From the NCBI GenBank assembly GCA_050954355.1, contig JBPBPH010000089.1, positions 546-64,545 of the forward strand: DNA of 64,000 nucleotides, given 5' to 3'. Made by a program: the position numbers and the translations under genes. Positions 29,100 to 34,418 of the stretch are shown one piece after another. The stretch comes from Janthinobacterium lividum (GTDB lineage: Bacteria > Bacteroidota > Bacteroidia > Cytophagales > Hymenobacteraceae). The first letter of the stretch is position 1. Every line of letters begins with the position of its first letter. The notes below the pieces were generated by a model, which saw only the letters and a list, made by a program, of their open reading frames with translations, was not told the origin of the DNA and ran no database searches.

Positions 29100-29253
29100 T
29101 GCCGCCAAGGACCTAGAGTGTAACATTATGGCATTGTGCAGCCCTAGGGCCGCTTTGGCTAAACAGGGGCCGTAAATTTGCCTTATGGTGAACCAAGCCC
29201 CGAAGGATTTCCTTAGTGCGGGCAACGTTCTGCTCACGTCCCAAATTCATCGA

Positions 29254-30030
29254 ATGGCCATCCTGGTTTTTTTCGTCGCCCACTACTATTTATCGCTGTT
29301 TACGCAGACGTTTTACCTGCACCGCTACGCGGCGCACAAGATGTTTACGATGAACAAGTTTTGGGAGAAATTCTTCTTCCTGTTCACCTACATCTGCCAG
29401 GGTAGCAGCTTTTTATCGCCGCGCGCCTACGCCCTGCTGCACCGCATGCACCACGCCTACTCCGATACGGAGCTAGACCCGCACTCGCCGCTGTTTTCCA
29501 ACAACGCCTTCGACATGATGTGGAAGACGAAGAACATCTACAACGACGTGCTCAACCACAACTACGAGCTGGCCGAGCGCTTCGAGGGCGACTACCCGGT
29601 GTGGCAGGCCGTAGAAAACTTCGGCGATAAGTGGTACTCACGCCTGGGCTGGGGCACGCTCTACGTGCTGTTCTACATCCAGTTTGCCACCGCTTGGTGG
29701 ATGTTTTTGCTACTGCCCATCCACTTCTTAATGGGCCCCATCCACGGCGCCATCGTCAACTGGGGCGGCCACAAGTATGGCTACCAGAACTTCGACAATA
29801 AGGACCACAGCAAGAACACGCTGGCCATGGACTTTTTGGCCTTCGGCGAGCTATTCCAAAACAACCACCACAAGCTGCCCATGCGCGTCAACTTCGGCGT
29901 GAAGTGGTGGGAGTTTGACCCCACCTACGTCGCCATCTGGACGCTCGACAAAGCGCGCATCATCAAGATTAAGCGCAAGAACGTGCAGCCCAAGCAGCGC
30001 GTGAAAAAAGACCTGCGGCAGGCCGCCTAG
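29254..30030 (+). CDS. Acyl-CoA/acyl-lipid fatty acid desaturase
   Basis: His boxes HRYAAH, HRMHH and QNNHH. Confidence 0.92.
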   Translation: MAILVFFVAHYYLSLFTQTFYLHRYAAHKMFTMNKFWEKFFFLFTYICQGSSFLSPRAYALLHRMHHAYSDTELDPHSPLFSNNAFDMMWKTKNIYNDVLNHNYELAERFEGDYPVWQAVENFGDKWYSRLGWGTLYVLFYIQFATAWWMFLLLPIHFLMGPIHGAIVNWGGHKYGYQNFDNKDHSKNTLAMDFLAFGELFQNNHHKLPMRVNFGVKWWEFDPTYVAIWTLDKARIIKIKRKNVQPKQRVKKDLRQAA

Positions 30031-30045
30031 GCCCCCTGGCCATGC

Positions 30046-30081
30046 AAAAGCCCCGCTACCGTGCAGGTAGCGGGGCTTTTT
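30046..30081. terminator. Bidirectional terminator
   Basis: AAAAGCCCCGCTACC-loop-GGTAGCGGGGCTTTT between convergent genes. Confidence 0.85.
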
Positions 30082-30115: not shown

Positions 30116-31108
30116 TCACTTTTGCAGCACCAGCACGCCGTTGAGCAGGAAGTTGTCGCCCGCCTCGGTGGTTAGGTTATACACGGGCTGCAGGCCGCCC
30201 GCGTACTCGCGGGTGCGCAGCACGGTGTGCGGCTCCACGGCCTGGGTGGCGGGATGAAGGCATAAAATCTGGTCGCCCACTACTACCTCGCCGGCGGTCC
30301 TAGGGCCCCCTAGGGTTTGCAAAGGGTGGTTGGGGGTGGCTTCCAGCACCCGGCTGGCCAGCTGGATGGTGGTGGCGTGGGCGCTGGCTTGCTCGCGCAC
30401 GGCCACTACATGCAGCTGCGTGAGGGCATAATTTTGGGCTGCGTGGGCGTGCACGGCCCGCACGGTGGTGGCCGCGGGCTGCCCGGTGCGGGCATCGAGG
30501 CCCAGTATTTGGTCGCCGGGCTGCACGGCGCGCAGGGCCCGGTGGCCGCCGCCAGCCAGCGCCACCAGCTGCTCGCCGGGAAAGCAGATGTCGTTGCCGT
30601 AGGTGCCCGACTCGGCCGAGAGGTTCTTGCCCTGGTTGAGGACCTTGAACTGCTGGAAAGCCAGCTCCTTGGACAGCACGTAGGACAGCTTCAGCACGAA
30701 GTTCTTTTCCTCGCGGTCGATGGCGTGAATGTCCTCGAAGTACTGGTTCCACACCTTGCCGTCGGCGGTGTAGTCGGGCAGCAGCGCCTGGTAGCGCTTA
30801 CCCTTCTCGTTGGTGTAATAAACCAGGGTGCCTATTTCCTGCATTCCGTCTTTGGCAAGGAGCTTGTAGAGGTCGATGCGTTTTTTCAGCCCGTCGTCGC
30901 CCGTAATGAAGTAGGGCTTGCGGGCCTCGTAGCGGTCCAGGATGTACGCATTCTCAAATTTGACGTAGCTATCCGCGTCCAGGTCCTTGACGGCAAACGT
31001 CCGGGCTTTCTTGTACTCGTCGAGGGTGAGCGGGCGGGGGTTGGGCTGGCCTAGGGCCGCGCCGCTGCTGCCCAGCAGGAGCAGGCTGGCAAGCAAGGTG
31101 TTGCGCAT
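30116..31108 (-). CDS. Secreted protein with a C-terminal Hint (Hedgehog/intein) domain
   Basis: Sec signal; block A CFPGEQLV (Cys175); block B ATPNHP; block F VYNL; ends NFLLNGVLVLQK. Confidence 0.85.
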   Translation of the reverse strand: MRNTLLASLLLLGSSGAALGQPNPRPLTLDEYKKARTFAVKDLDADSYVKFENAYILDRYEARKPYFITGDDGLKKRIDLYKLLAKDGMQEIGTLVYYTNEKGKRYQALLPDYTADGKVWNQYFEDIHAIDREEKNFVLKLSYVLSKELAFQQFKVLNQGKNLSAESGTYGNDICFPGEQLVALAGGGHRALRAVQPGDQILGLDARTGQPAATTVRAVHAHAAQNYALTQLHVVAVREQASAHATTIQLASRVLEATPNHPLQTLGGPRTAGEVVVGDQILCLHPATQAVEPHTVLRTREYAGGLQPVYNLTTEAGDNFLLNGVLVLQK

Positions 31109-31202
31109 GGAAGTAGTTGCTGGTTTAGTACTGATTGATTCGTTGTCCAGAACGCCCGCCGCGCCGGGCGCGCGGCGGGCATCGGTAGGGCTGGCTACCG
31201 CC

Positions 31203-32384
31203 CTAGGACACCTGCCCGAAGGCTTCGGCAAACGCCTGCATTTCGTCCATCCGGCCGATGCTGACGCGGCACCACTGCTTGCCAGCAAACTGCCAGTTGC
31301 GCACGCCCACGCCGCGCTTCATCATCTCGTCCACGAAGCGCTTGCCGTCCATGCGCAGCGGAAACATCACGAAATTGGTGGCGGAAGGAATGTACTCGTA
31401 GCCTTCGCGCTTAAGCGTGTCATAGAGAAACAGCCGCGAAGCCAGCGTTTTTTGCAGCGCTTCCTGCATATAGGCCTGGTCTTGGTAGCTCACCAGCGCT
31501 GCTTGCACGGCCGGGGCCGAAATACTCATGGGGCCCTGCGTGTACTGGCTCAGCATTTTGATGGTTTCGGGCTGGCCCACCAGGTAGCCCACCCGCAGGC
31601 CCGCAAAGCCGTAGAGCTTTGAGAAGGTGCGGGCTACCAGCACGTTCTGGCCCGCCTTCACGGCACTCATCAGGCTGGCGGCGCGCGGGTCGGGCAGGTA
31701 GTCGATGTAGGCCTCGTCCACGAAAACGGGGGTTTTCTTCGCTACCCGCTCCACAAAACCCTTGAGCTTGGCCGCGTCGAGCACGGTGCCGGTGGGGTTG
31801 TTGGGGTTGCAGATGTACACCAGCCCCGTGCGGGCGTCGAGCAGCTTTTCCATCGCGTCGAGGTCGTACTTGTGGTCGGCGGTGAGGGGCACGGCCACGA
31901 TGGGCGCCTTAAATTTCTCGGCCTTGCGCACGAGGTCGGCGTAGGTGGGGTCGGCCGTGAGGATGGCGCCCTGCTGCCCGTAGCGCATGGCGGCGGCCAG
32001 CAGCAGCGGGCTCGAGCCGGCATCGAGCAAAATGTGCTCGGGCGTCAGGCCCTCGTAGTCAGCGATTTTCTGGGTTAGCTCACGGCTCTGGGGCGGGTAC
32101 TGGTAGCAGGTAGCCACCGAGTCGGCGATGGCCTGCTTGGCTTTTGCCGAAGGCCCGAAGGGATTTTCGTTGGCCAGCAGGCGCGCCTTAAGAGTGGGCG
32201 CGGCGGCGGCCAGCGCCTCCTGCTCGGTGAGGGGCAGCCACGCGGGCGCGGCCGGCAGCAGCGGCGCGGGGCGCGGGGCCAGCGGCGCGGCCAGGGCCCC
32301 TAGGCCCGCTGGCAGCAGCGAAGCTGCTCCAGCCAGTAAGGCGCCCGATTTCAGCCAGGCGCGGCGATTTATGCGGTTTTCCAT
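31203..32384 (-). CDS. HisC-like PLP aminotransferase with a twin-arginine signal
   Basis: NRRAWLK; NENPFG, CNPNNPTG, VDEAY and RTFSKLYGFAGLRVGY motifs. Confidence 0.9.
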   Translation of the reverse strand: MENRINRRAWLKSGALLAGAASLLPAGLGALAAPLAPRPAPLLPAAPAWLPLTEQEALAAAAPTLKARLLANENPFGPSAKAKQAIADSVATCYQYPPQSRELTQKIADYEGLTPEHILLDAGSSPLLLAAAMRYGQQGAILTADPTYADLVRKAEKFKAPIVAVPLTADHKYDLDAMEKLLDARTGLVYICNPNNPTGTVLDAAKLKGFVERVAKKTPVFVDEAYIDYLPDPRAASLMSAVKAGQNVLVARTFSKLYGFAGLRVGYLVGQPETIKMLSQYTQGPMSISAPAVQAALVSYQDQAYMQEALQKTLASRLFLYDTLKREGYEYIPSATNFVMFPLRMDGKRFVDEMMKRGVGVRNWQFAGKQWCRVSIGRMDEMQAFAEAFGQVS

Positions 32385-32496
32385 GGGGCGTACGGGTTTA
32401 GGTAATAAATGCGAGAATTGGTTGGGTCGGGGGCAATCGCCGCGGGCGCCGCGGTGCGTTGCTCGCCACGGCAAATTACTGCTATAGTGGCGAATA

Positions 32497-34098
32497 TCAG
32501 TTAGTTGCGGCTTTCACGGTGGGGTAGCTGGTGCGCTGCTCGCTGAGGCGGCCGTGCACGGCCGCCACCGTGCTGCGGGCCGACTCGAAGGCGCCCGCCA
32601 TCCAGGCGGTGAGGTAGGTGGTGTGCTCGCCGGCGAAGTACACGCGCTGCTCGGGCCGGAGCAGGGCTGGGTACAGCGCCTGCCGCTGCTCGGGGGTGTA
32701 GAGCGCCCAGCCCCCTAGGCTGTAGGGCTGCTTCTGCCAGCTCACCGAAAACGAGCGCTCGAACTCCCTAGGGTACTGCGGATGAATAAGCTGGCCCTTG
32801 CGCAGGGCCAGCTGCTCGCGTTCGGCGTAGGGCAGCTCGCCCACGGCCTTGGCCTTCTCGTTGAAGTTGTAGTAGCCAATCAGGATGCCCTTCTGGCTGA
32901 GGTAGTCGTAGCTGGGGTAAAATACCTGCGTCAATTCATTGTTGGTGTGCGTGATGCCGCCGTAAATCTGCTCGTCCTCCTCCCAAAACCGGCGCTTGAA
33001 CTGCAAACCAATCTTGCCGGTCTGGATGTAAGGCACGAAGTCGATAGCCCGGCTCACGTCGCCCGAAAAATTGTGGCTCACGTTGCTGAGCACGGGCAGC
33101 GGCAGGGTGCAGATGCAGAGGTCGGCCGTCAGTTCGTGCGTGCCCTGGGGGTCCTGGTACGTCACCTGCACTCCCTCGGGCTGGTTGAGGATGTGCGTCA
33201 CCTCGCAGCGCAGCTTCAGGCAGTCGGCCACGCGCCGCTCCAGCGCCTGCGCAATGCGGTCCATGCCTCCCACGGCCTGAAACATGGTCATTTGCAGCTC
33301 GTAGGTATACTCAGCCACGTTGTAGAAGTCGGGGTCGAGCAGGCCCGACTGCACGATGTCGGCCAGGCGATAGGGGTCGGCAATCTTACCCACGCGCGGG
33401 CCGGCGCCGGGCGTCTCCACGTAGCCGCGCCGCGCCGAGGCCTTATATAAGGCATCAATATCGAGCCCGCCCTCGGCGCGCAGGTATTCGAGCACCTTGG
33501 CCGCGTCTTCCTTGCTCAGGCCGGTATCTACCTGGTGGGTACTCAGGGCCTTGGTCAGCAGCTCGGTGGTGTAGCCGCGCACGTCGTTATGAATCTCGCG
33601 GGCCCGCACCTTTTTGTTCGATAGCGGCCCCTTACCCTCGGCAAAGTAGTAGCTCCCTTCATTCACGTTGTTATATACTTCCAACGGCACGCCCAGCTCC
33701 TTGCAGTAATGCATCGTGAGCTGGTGGTGGTGCGGAATGCGCGACGGCCCCGCGTTGAAATACAAGCCGTTGTCGAAGCCGGCGGTGTGGGCGGGGTTGG
33801 TGGTTTCCTGGGTGCTGCTGCCGCCGCGCACGCTCCAGCAGCGGCCGCCGCTGCGCTCGCGGGCTTCCAGAATAGTACAGCGGTAGCCCAGCTTGCGCAA
33901 TTCGTAGGCCGAGGTAAGGCCCGCCAGCCCGCCGCCCAGTAGCACGATATGCTTGCCCTGCCCGCTGCCCGGCCGCAGCTCGAACGCATGGGCCGGCGCG
34001 GCCGGCAGCAAATTGAGCGCTAGCATGGCCGGGTAGGCCCCCGCCCCTAGCGCGGCACTTTTAGTTAAAAAAGCTCGTCGAGAAATCGATTTTTGCAT
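32497..34098 (-). CDS. Flavin monoamine oxidase / L-amino-acid oxidase family protein with a twin-arginine signal
   Basis: SRRAFL...AHA signal; GGGLAG, EARERSGGR, GGMDRI and FAGEH motifs. Confidence 0.9.
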   Translation of the reverse strand: MQKSISRRAFLTKSAALGAGAYPAMLALNLLPAAPAHAFELRPGSGQGKHIVLLGGGLAGLTSAYELRKLGYRCTILEARERSGGRCWSVRGGSSTQETTNPAHTAGFDNGLYFNAGPSRIPHHHQLTMHYCKELGVPLEVYNNVNEGSYYFAEGKGPLSNKKVRAREIHNDVRGYTTELLTKALSTHQVDTGLSKEDAAKVLEYLRAEGGLDIDALYKASARRGYVETPGAGPRVGKIADPYRLADIVQSGLLDPDFYNVAEYTYELQMTMFQAVGGMDRIAQALERRVADCLKLRCEVTHILNQPEGVQVTYQDPQGTHELTADLCICTLPLPVLSNVSHNFSGDVSRAIDFVPYIQTGKIGLQFKRRFWEEDEQIYGGITHTNNELTQVFYPSYDYLSQKGILIGYYNFNEKAKAVGELPYAEREQLALRKGQLIHPQYPREFERSFSVSWQKQPYSLGGWALYTPEQRQALYPALLRPEQRVYFAGEHTTYLTAWMAGAFESARSTVAAVHGRLSEQRTSYPTVKAATN

Positions 34099-34345
34099 AG
34101 TCAACGCTTTTTGACCCCCAAAATTTAGGGAGCAAGCTTCATTAAATAACATTTTATTTAGCTTATCCCCTATTTTAGTAGGGCTCTTTTACCAATAATA
34201 ACCTTTTATAACCTACCACCCCTAGTAGATAAAAGGCTTGGGTGGCAATTAAGCTTTGCTTTTCTTTGCGTATCCTCGGGGCATAGTAGTGAGTTGTAGG
34301 ATAGCTTATTTCGACACAAATGCTGATTTAGCGCACGTTGCCCCG

Positions 34346-34353
34346 TACCTTTG
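34346..34353 (+). promoter_or_regulatory. Bacteroidota -7 promoter element upstream of rpsP
   Basis: TACCTTTG matches TAnnTTTG. Similar elements at 29173, 36588, 37207, 39793 and 45100. Confidence 0.65.
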
Positions 34354-34418
34354 CGGCCCCAAAGTATTTTACTTATTTCACAGACGCACGGGATGCGTCG
34401 CTCAACCTTACCAGGTTT

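Follow-up and report, generated by a model that had tools for sequence, protein, structure and literature searches.

A conserved Bacteroidota gene unit combining an L-amino acid oxidase-like enzyme, a PtaA-like aminotransferase and a lysine-ending Hint protein

Why should two enzymes with twin-arginine motifs, both of a kind that acts on amines, be encoded next to a predicted secreted protein that ends in a Hint domain? The question is raised by three genes at positions 30,116 to 34,098 of a 64,000-nucleotide stretch from Janthinobacterium lividum (placed by GTDB in the Hymenobacteraceae of the Bacteroidota; assembly GCA_050954355.1, contig JBPBPH010000089.1, positions 546 to 64,545), which we call the window. 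They encode a flavin amine oxidase, a pyridoxal phosphate (PLP) aminotransferase and a protein with a C-terminal Hint domain, hereafter the Hint protein. The first-pass annotation, made from the letters of the window, had read them as a periplasmic amine or amino-acid pathway coupled to a self-cleaving protein, with the enzymes supplying or removing a nucleophile for the Hint domain to ligate. Our analysis upholds a conserved gene set in which enzymes with predicted export are tied to a Hint protein with intact N-terminal catalytic residues; it does not support a nucleophile supplied by the enzymes. The explanation that we favour as a whole, with a probability of roughly 0.4, is a periplasmic amino-acid deamination unit with a self-processing partner of the oxidase that is re-joined through its own terminal lysine, Lys330. 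The main features, in window coordinates, are as follows.

32497..34098, minus strand: oxidase gene, 533 aa (open reading frame (ORF), Pfam, best PDB match 2jae)
31203..32384, minus strand: PLP aminotransferase gene, HisC/PtaA/PRK09105-like, 393 aa (ORF, Pfam, family models)
30116..31108, minus strand: Hint protein gene, 330 aa (ORF, Pfam, predicted structure)
30587..31048, minus strand: N-terminal domain (N-domain) of the Hint protein (alpha/beta, model pLDDT 91)
30119..30586, minus strand: Hint domain of the Hint protein (alignment, Foldseek, Pfam)

Conservation of the three-gene unit

All three ORFs lie on the minus strand, with gaps of 112 bp between the oxidase and aminotransferase genes and 94 bp between the aminotransferase and Hint genes, in agreement with the co-oriented genes and gaps of roughly 95-110 bp described before. 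From a GTDB scan for the Hint gene we kept the best 80 of 252 relatives (53-92% identity), a sample that is skewed to close relatives and spans Hymenobacter, Adhaeribacter, Pontibacter, Mucilaginibacter, Pedobacter and Chitinophaga. The aminotransferase gene is directly upstream of the Hint gene in 80/80 of these loci, and the oxidase gene is upstream of the aminotransferase gene in 77/80, the three misses being contig ends with less than 1.5 kb of upstream sequence. We found no fourth conserved gene, since other neighbours are common to at most 17 of 81 loci, antisense shadows aside.

To escape this close-relative bias, one even draw of 301 Cytophagales genomes was searched for the N-domain, the oxidase and the aminotransferase alike. 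The N-domain was found in 40 genomes, an oxidase orthologue in 38 and the aminotransferase in 70. The Hint protein is present in 38/38 of the oxidase-carrying genomes, in 9 of which the genes are unlinked, and 30 of the 70 aminotransferase-carrying genomes have neither the oxidase nor the Hint gene. According to coordinates read by eye and partly checked, the gene order is oxidase, aminotransferase, Hint in 5 genomes, aminotransferase, oxidase, Hint in 20, and convergent in 1; the Hint gene lies beside the oxidase gene without an adjacent aminotransferase gene in 3, is unlinked from the oxidase gene in 9, and follows the aminotransferase gene without an oxidase in 2. It adjoins the oxidase gene rather than the aminotransferase gene in 23 genomes. 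In a phylum-wide draw of 401 genomes, a close oxidase orthologue, at 62-65% identity, is present in 4 genomes besides the window's own, and all 4 have a Hint gene within about 2.5 kb of it; a fifth oxidase match, at 30% identity, came with no Hint match. The joint occurrence has outlasted several rearrangements and the loss of linkage, which speaks for a functional connection, above all with the oxidase. Conservation of the gene neighbourhood, on which the first-pass annotation had staked its reading, is thus clear, and we regard it as nearly certain that the three genes form a functional unit.

The two enzymes, the exported partner and the lysine-ending Hint domain

The oxidase has a Pfam Amino_oxidase match (E 3e-55), and the closest solved structure is 2jae, the L-amino acid oxidase of R. 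opacus, to which residues 46-521 align with E 1.6e-99 (the runner-up reaches E 4e-39). It carries GxGxxG at residues 55-60 as well as R120, K362, Y410, W464 and W499; the Arg, the Lys, the Tyr and the two Trp that we take to form the active site of 2jae, roles for which the literature search gave no confirmation, are unchanged in the oxidase alignment. By full-length homology, the flavin adenine dinucleotide (FAD) motif and these residues, the oxidase belongs to the R. opacus type of L-amino acid oxidases. We know of no Hint partner of the Rhodococcus enzyme. The twin-arginine motif SRRAFLT occupies residues 5-11, and by pattern match alone such a motif is present in 72/72 full-length orthologues. 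Many oxidase orthologues (L032, L039, L057, L065, L074, L083 and others) have no ATG before the motif and an apparent TTG or GTG start instead, so that ATG-only gene calls lose the signal. At L078 and at G644:C1:4797401-4800213, the oxidase/aminotransferase matches are split by a frameshift or an assembly error, and the Hint gene is intact.

The aminotransferase has a Pfam Aminotran_1_2 match (E 1e-50) and the PLP residues Lys256, D223, R264 and R373, which are unvaried across 41 sequences. Its twin-arginine motif, NRRAWLK at residues 6-12, recurs in 78/78 ORFs examined, again as a pattern match only; in both motif counts, which bear out the two signals (SRRAFL and NRRAWLK) proposed earlier, one locus was skipped and oxidase ORFs below 460 aa and aminotransferase ORFs below 370 aa were excluded. 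The scores of the family models stay below their cut-offs: 229.9 bits (E 3.6e-68) against a curated 500 for the PtaA model NF051461, 278.2 against 444 for PRK09105, and 243.9 against 276.55 for the HisC model TIGR01141. With its twin-arginine motif and PLP residues, the enzyme would fit among the PtaA-like periplasmic transaminases. The premise that HisC-like enzymes are normally cytoplasmic needs correction here, as PtaA of pseudomonads is described as a HisC-like transaminase exported by twin-arginine translocation (Tat), whose PLP needs periplasmic regeneration (PMC6206403). Because the aminotransferase resembles PtaA, its export would be unsurprising, and we rejected Tat export of this enzyme as the unusual feature of the locus. 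In several genomes (L046, L104, L112, L156, L157, L170) a second Tat aminotransferase copy lies near the unit.

Which proteins accompany such an oxidase outside Bacteroidota can be seen on plasmids of other phyla, where we found 37 records of homologues at 32-45% identity. In the 6 of 37 that we inspected, the homologues are of the same oxidase family, and all six have a cytochrome c gene (4) and/or a Rid-like gene (4) within three genes of them; none has an annotated Hint gene beside it. On a Bacillus plasmid (CP085709.1, L152:3986-7249), the oxidase homologue is followed by a signal-peptide Rid-like protein annotated as hypothetical, and then by tatA and tatC. Similar arrangements are described for the lao-cccA-ridA cluster of Gluconacetobacter diazotrophicus (PMC5053998) and for Tat flavin amine dehydrogenases with a Sec-exported cytochrome c, such as NicA2/CycN (PMC12224317). 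The oxidase here shares the Tat motif of the cytochrome c-coupled flavin amine dehydrogenases and lacks the adjacent cytochrome c gene, and neither a cytochrome c nor a Rid gene is conserved at the Bacteroidota loci. Loss of cytochrome c maturation was rejected as the cause of such a swap of partners, since G000 has 2 PF01578 matches. A predicted complex of the oxidase, FAD and the mature Hint protein gave an ipSAE of 0.49 (runs 0.47, 0.60 and 0.49), with 0.00 for the best of three controls, at least 82% of contacts in common between runs and a partner pLDDT of at least 81. We think that the Hint protein is probably the dedicated partner of the oxidase, in the slot held elsewhere by cytochrome c or Rid.

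The Hint protein consists of residues 1-20, which by inspection resemble a signal peptide, as the proposed Sec signal had implied, a domain of no known family at 21-174 and a C-terminal Hint domain at 175-330; it contains no CxxCH. Positions Y48, D58, R59, D72, G93, P111 and W120 of the N-domain are unvaried. The N-domain gave no Pfam family and no PDB sequence match at E up to 10, and Foldseek found no match to its model at E up to 0.001. The best VIA-align results were Hat1 (Z 5.1, root-mean-square deviation 4.0, 90 aligned) and Ivy (Z 4.8), which lie in the range of common arrangements and indicate neither a likeness nor a new fold. The ESM Atlas returned solely the family's own clusters (0.77), and the N-domain does not resemble the Bacillus Rid-like partner. 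Over 85 loci its median identity to the query is 74%, versus 44% for the Hint domain. The N-domain matches in 40 genomes all sit in open frames of 324-419 aa, and the four representatives without a Hint match look truncated or frameshifted, the search for Hint-less versions not having extended to shorter proteins.

The C-terminal domain has a Pfam Hint match above the cut-off (E 2.8e-9), and its model resembles inteins, bacterial intein-like (BIL) domains and Hedgehog (Foldseek E 1e-9). C175 (Cys1), H222, T258, H261 and K330 are unvaried in 32/32 sequences at 27-68% identity, T258-x-x-H261 being the TxxH of block B, and residues 328-329 vary (LD, FK, MT, LG, LQ and others), 329 being the usual position of the intein Asn. 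Judged by predicted fold, Cys1 and TxxH, the domain is a member of the HINT superfamily. We place K330 at +1, the position at which inteins have the nucleophile for their second step, because related domains end in His-Asn-Lys and because of the alignment to BIL2. Lys is found at +1 in 37/37 family representatives that reach the last block, and is the last residue in 30 of these. None of the 37 has the His-Asn end of class 1 inteins, and the Cys, Ser or Thr at +1 plus C-extein of that class is likewise absent. Nor did we find a match at E up to 0.1 to PF13403 (Hint_2), which we take to mark BIL type B. The domain also lacks the C-terminal His-Asn by which PMC7765530 defines BIL type A. The sterol-recognition region of Hedgehog/Hog is absent, the protein stopping at the +1 residue. 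H222 (Hint position 48) is near the presumed place of Hedgehog Asp303 (Hint position 46), and the Hedgehog Hint profile alignment (1at0/6tyy) ends at chain residues 39-41, before H222. The residue lines up with H48 of BIL2, a zinc ligand (PMC9200820), and His is found there in 36/37 family members and 46/48 other Lys-ending domains. An interpretation of the Lys end as a type IX secretion system C-terminal domain was rejected, the fold being that of Hint.

When 1.84 billion representatives were searched with a Hint profile, there were 870 matches at E up to 1e-10, of which the best 150 were examined; longer Hint fusions, which a word-indexed search missed, were found by this exhaustive profile search. 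Among these 150, and for domains that reach the last block, Lys is at +1 outside the family in 50/57 domains at the C-terminus of another protein or a fragment and in 68/73 internal domains, counts that are biased upward because the profile favours Lys-terminal domains. Of the 73 internal domains reaching the last block, 59 end in His-Asn-Lys, and Lys instead of Cys, Ser or Thr at +1 may be the mark of a wider splicing class. The Lys-ending Hint domain caps 32 representatives with other long N-terminal parts that form 8 clusters, all with Cys1, including 19 in a WG-repeat cluster and 5 leucine-rich repeat (LRR) proteins. One metagenome-assembled genome of the Ignavibacteria was among the 10 carriers whose taxonomy was looked up. 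Hymenobacter G393 carries a Lys-ending Hint domain, and with the queries used neither the oxidase nor the aminotransferase was found in it.

Several side observations concern the same domain. A second Hymenobacter family of about 564 aa with an unrelated N-terminal part (L008/L009/L098 in G035, G006 and G393; P0126) ends in the same Lys-terminal Hint domain, and in G393 neither an oxidase nor an aminotransferase gene adjoins it within the region inspected. Many long proteins (P0166, P0192, P0193, P0202 and others) hold 2-7 Hint domains, often back to back, with His-Asn-Lys ends. In other Hint domains (P0201, P0204, P0230, P0236, P0258 and others), which come after ricin-type lectin or WG-repeat domains, the end is Ser-Pro-Lys (7) or Ser-Ser-Lys (2), and the protein continues beyond it with another C-terminal part. 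The His-Asn-Lys Hint domain at L110:9526-10023 also matches the ataxin-1 AXH domain (E 2e-7), as P0166 and P0208 match Pfam AXH, and the ORF L012:595-2229 (G036), with an internal His-Asn Hint domain and then a C-terminal domain, by eye resembles an interbacterial polymorphic toxin.

Proposed mechanism and rival explanations

In the explanation that we favour, both enzymes would be exported by Tat, folded and with their cofactors, as their motifs suggest. The oxidase would convert L-amino acids to 2-oxo acids and ammonia, and the PtaA-like transaminase would in turn draw on these 2-oxo acids to restore its PLP, which would widen the range of amines deaminated; both steps are what family knowledge leads us to expect. 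The Sec-exported Hint protein would dock on the oxidase, with which it is observed to co-occur and to which it is weakly predicted to bind. Its Hint domain would then make a thioester at I174-C175, and the side chain of Lys330 at +1 may capture this thioester as an isopeptide, leaving the N-domain tethered and Cys175 as a free amino-thiol near the reactive products of the oxidase. As the Hint domain has no terminal Asn, no cut at its C-terminal end would be made by the intein route. We consider the N-S shift at I174-C175 quite likely, and Lys330 as the acceptor a tentative assignment, somewhat short of even odds. BIL2 has been reported to form a Lys isopeptide (PMC8616854), which is a precedent for isopeptides made by Hint domains. 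The broader proposal is of undescribed, widespread bacterial C-terminal Hint tags that form a terminal Lys isopeptide without ATP or a helper enzyme and cap many unrelated exported proteins, here maturing a new partner without heme in the place of cytochrome c or Rid; this we hold to be doubtful.

Several points weigh against re-joining through Lys330 in a partner of the oxidase. Two near-complete genomes of one genus (G047 and G643) keep the Hint gene, with catalytic residues intact, beside the aminotransferase gene, and a profile search for the oxidase gave only Rossmann-motif matches in them; their retention of the gene implies that the Hint protein is useful without the oxidase. The genomes compared are kin and not independent samples. 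Over the 85 loci, the identity to the query of the N-domain correlates with that of the oxidase at a Spearman coefficient of 0.64 versus 0.76 for the aminotransferase, and this correlation, tried as a partner test, singled out no partner. Tat oxidases without an adjacent cytochrome c are described as reacting fast with O2 (PMC12224317), so no electron-carrier partner would be required. The complex prediction, which covered the oxidase as its sole enzyme, is a weak pass: the ipSAE mark is passed by 116/157 solved complexes and 2/215 mismatches, and at values up to 0.60 by 18 solved complexes and both mismatches, so that such passes would be wrong more often than right unless the pairing was likely beforehand. 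The upward bias of the +1 counts belongs here too. Furthermore, an isopeptide in cis leaves the mass unchanged and its benefit is doubtful; Lys330 could be a catalytic helper instead. Finally, the whole explanation builds on predicted cleavage, ligation, export and substrate.

Plain cleavage and envelope anchoring are serious rivals to re-ligation at Lys330. If the Hint domain only cuts, the thioester would be hydrolysed with the assistance of Lys330 and His222, and the N-domain would be freed as an accessory of the oxidase, for example one that handles the imine or stabilises the enzyme instead of Rid. Type B BILs are reported to cleave at their N-end (PMC7765530), no conserved Rid gene is near the Bacteroidota loci, the two G000 Rid proteins above the family cut-off have by inspection no signal peptide, and conservation is higher in the N-domain (median identity 74%) than in the Hint domain (44%). 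However, hydrolysis leaves unexplained a Lys that is fixed at +1 across unrelated proteins and preceded by two freely varying residues, and the N-domain is unlike the Bacillus Rid-like partner. We judge this account unlikely. Alternatively, the Lys-ending Hint domain may be a general anchoring tag, by which the N-domain is ligated to an amine or alcohol of the envelope, be it on a lipid, on peptidoglycan or on another protein; once anchored, the N-domain would keep the oxidase in position. Such a tag would suit the 32 representatives in 8 unrelated N-terminal clusters, all with Cys1, and the closeness of H222 to the presumed Asp303 position of Hedgehog; yet H222 aligns with the BIL2 zinc ligand H48, the Hedgehog profile alignment stops earlier, and there is no acceptor-binding region beyond the Hint domain. 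BIL2 itself is described as conjugating in trans to other proteins (PMC8616854). We consider anchoring rather unlikely.

The proposal with which the locus was first annotated, that a small nucleophile is made or removed by the enzymes and joined to the N-domain by the Hint domain, as cholesterol is in Hedgehog, has on its side the very tight three-gene linkage, an intact Cys1 and TxxH, and two enzymes that act on amines. The protein, however, has an unvaried lysine of its own, Lys330, as a candidate nucleophile, and the same Hint type is found on WG-repeat and LRR proteins and in G393, where neither enzyme was found. With at least 8 unrelated protein groups ending in this Hint domain, one of which occurs in G393, the enzymes are probably not the source of the nucleophile. 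Elsewhere the oxidase family is accompanied by cytochrome c or Rid instead of a Hint gene, the aminotransferase occurs without a Hint gene in 30/70 genomes, and the Hedgehog-like analogy falters on a protein that stops at +1 with no equivalent of the sterol region. We hold this proposal to be very improbable. Service to the aminotransferase or to a pathway substrate, for example as a substrate-binding or chaperone-like protein, would accord with the adjacency of the two genes in 80/80 close loci and with G047 and G643, which keep this pair without the oxidase. It appears very improbable, as 30 genomes of the Cytophagales draw have the aminotransferase without a Hint gene, none of that draw has the oxidase without one, and 23 genomes have the Hint gene next to the oxidase gene instead.

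Local context and comparison with known systems

The non-coding features around the unit are listed below.

30046..30081, either strand: two-way intrinsic terminator-like hairpin with a perfect 11-bp stem and A4/T5 flanks
31154..31180, minus strand: GC hairpin of 11 bp without a U tract in the gap between the aminotransferase and Hint genes, not terminator-like
34099..34418, no strand assigned: AT-rich intergenic region, divergent from rpsP, 42% GC

The AT-rich upstream region and the shared terminator of the first-pass annotation were both recovered, the former having 42% GC versus about 60-69% inside the three genes. The terminator-like site is common to the Hint gene and a convergent fatty-acid desaturase-like gene (PF00487, window 29185-30030), which is present at 15/81 loci and is local Hymenobacter-type context outside the three-gene unit. 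On the minus strand, putative promoter elements (34127 and 34200) match, with one mismatch each, the Bacteroidota -7 motif in the form that we presume to be its consensus; a sigma-70 scan, whose model is unsuited to this phylum, gave 0 sites. In several Cytophagales (L155, L156, L157, L162, L103, L173, L111), SusC/SusD-like pairs or a TonB-receptor-like gene, as judged by eye, adjoin the oxidase or aminotransferase gene, and with such neighbours a role in nutrient uptake would fit. In one genome (G609, L166:4118-6076), a gene that by eye is catalase-like lies with a small neighbour directly upstream of the aminotransferase, oxidase and Hint genes.

To our knowledge, a function has been assigned to hardly any non-intein Hint domain of bacteria. 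A single-copy Hint protein that accompanies one enzyme family in 38/38 genomes is a clean experimental handle, and because it tracks that family, it is plain what a knock-out or a binding test should measure. A Lys at the intein +1 position points to a Hint chemistry that is otherwise reported, in the literature searched, for a ciliate domain only, and a self-ligating tag of 156 residues, if true, would be of interest to protein engineers. A paired oxidase as a source of oxo acids may also suggest a route of cofactor regeneration for PtaA-like periplasmic transaminases. The literature that we searched, which included few subscription papers and none of the primary BIL reports, gave no account of the unit or of a Hint class with Lys at +1.

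Among known Hint systems, BIL2 of the Tetrahymena BUBL locus (PDB 6y75, 6tmm) shares the Hint fold (Foldseek E 4e-9) and His48, but it ends in His-Asn with a C-extein, whereas the Hint domain here has no His-Asn, ends in Lys at +1 and is part of a predicted secreted bacterial protein. Hedgehog Hog, for which our source of comparison is PMC4695875, has the same layout as that predicted for the Hint protein, a secreted N-domain and then, at the C-terminal end, a Hint domain with Cys1 and TxxH, and differs in its sterol-recognition region, where the Hint protein has Lys at +1 as its last residue. The bacterial intein-like domains A and B, as described in PMC7765530, are likewise non-intein bacterial Hint domains, but occur in hypervariable proteins, unlike the well-conserved single-copy protein here. 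The domain falls outside the definitions of inteins, Hog, BIL-A and BIL-B. A further type, BIL type C of predatory bacteria, is marked by motifs of its own and a PPS-1 domain. Other secreted proteins with a C-terminal Hint are mentioned for myxobacteria and gammaproteobacteria (PMC2362128).

On the enzyme side, the likeness to the R. opacus oxidase (2jae) lies in sequence and active-site residues, and the substrate range and O2 use of the oxidase here are predicted. PtaA is likewise a HisC-like PLP enzyme with a twin-arginine motif; the aminotransferase, by contrast, is paired with an oxidase, has no siderophore genes conserved nearby and scores under half the PtaA cut-off. The lao-cccA-ridA and NicA2/CycN systems also place a Tat-type flavin amine oxidoreductase gene beside an exported partner, but the partner in Bacteroidota is a Hint fusion without CxxCH, and a PtaA-like transaminase is added. 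By analogy, these comparisons suggest that the unit may work as other Tat oxidases do together with their exported partners, and that its third gene may act in the manner of a BIL or Hog autoprocessor.

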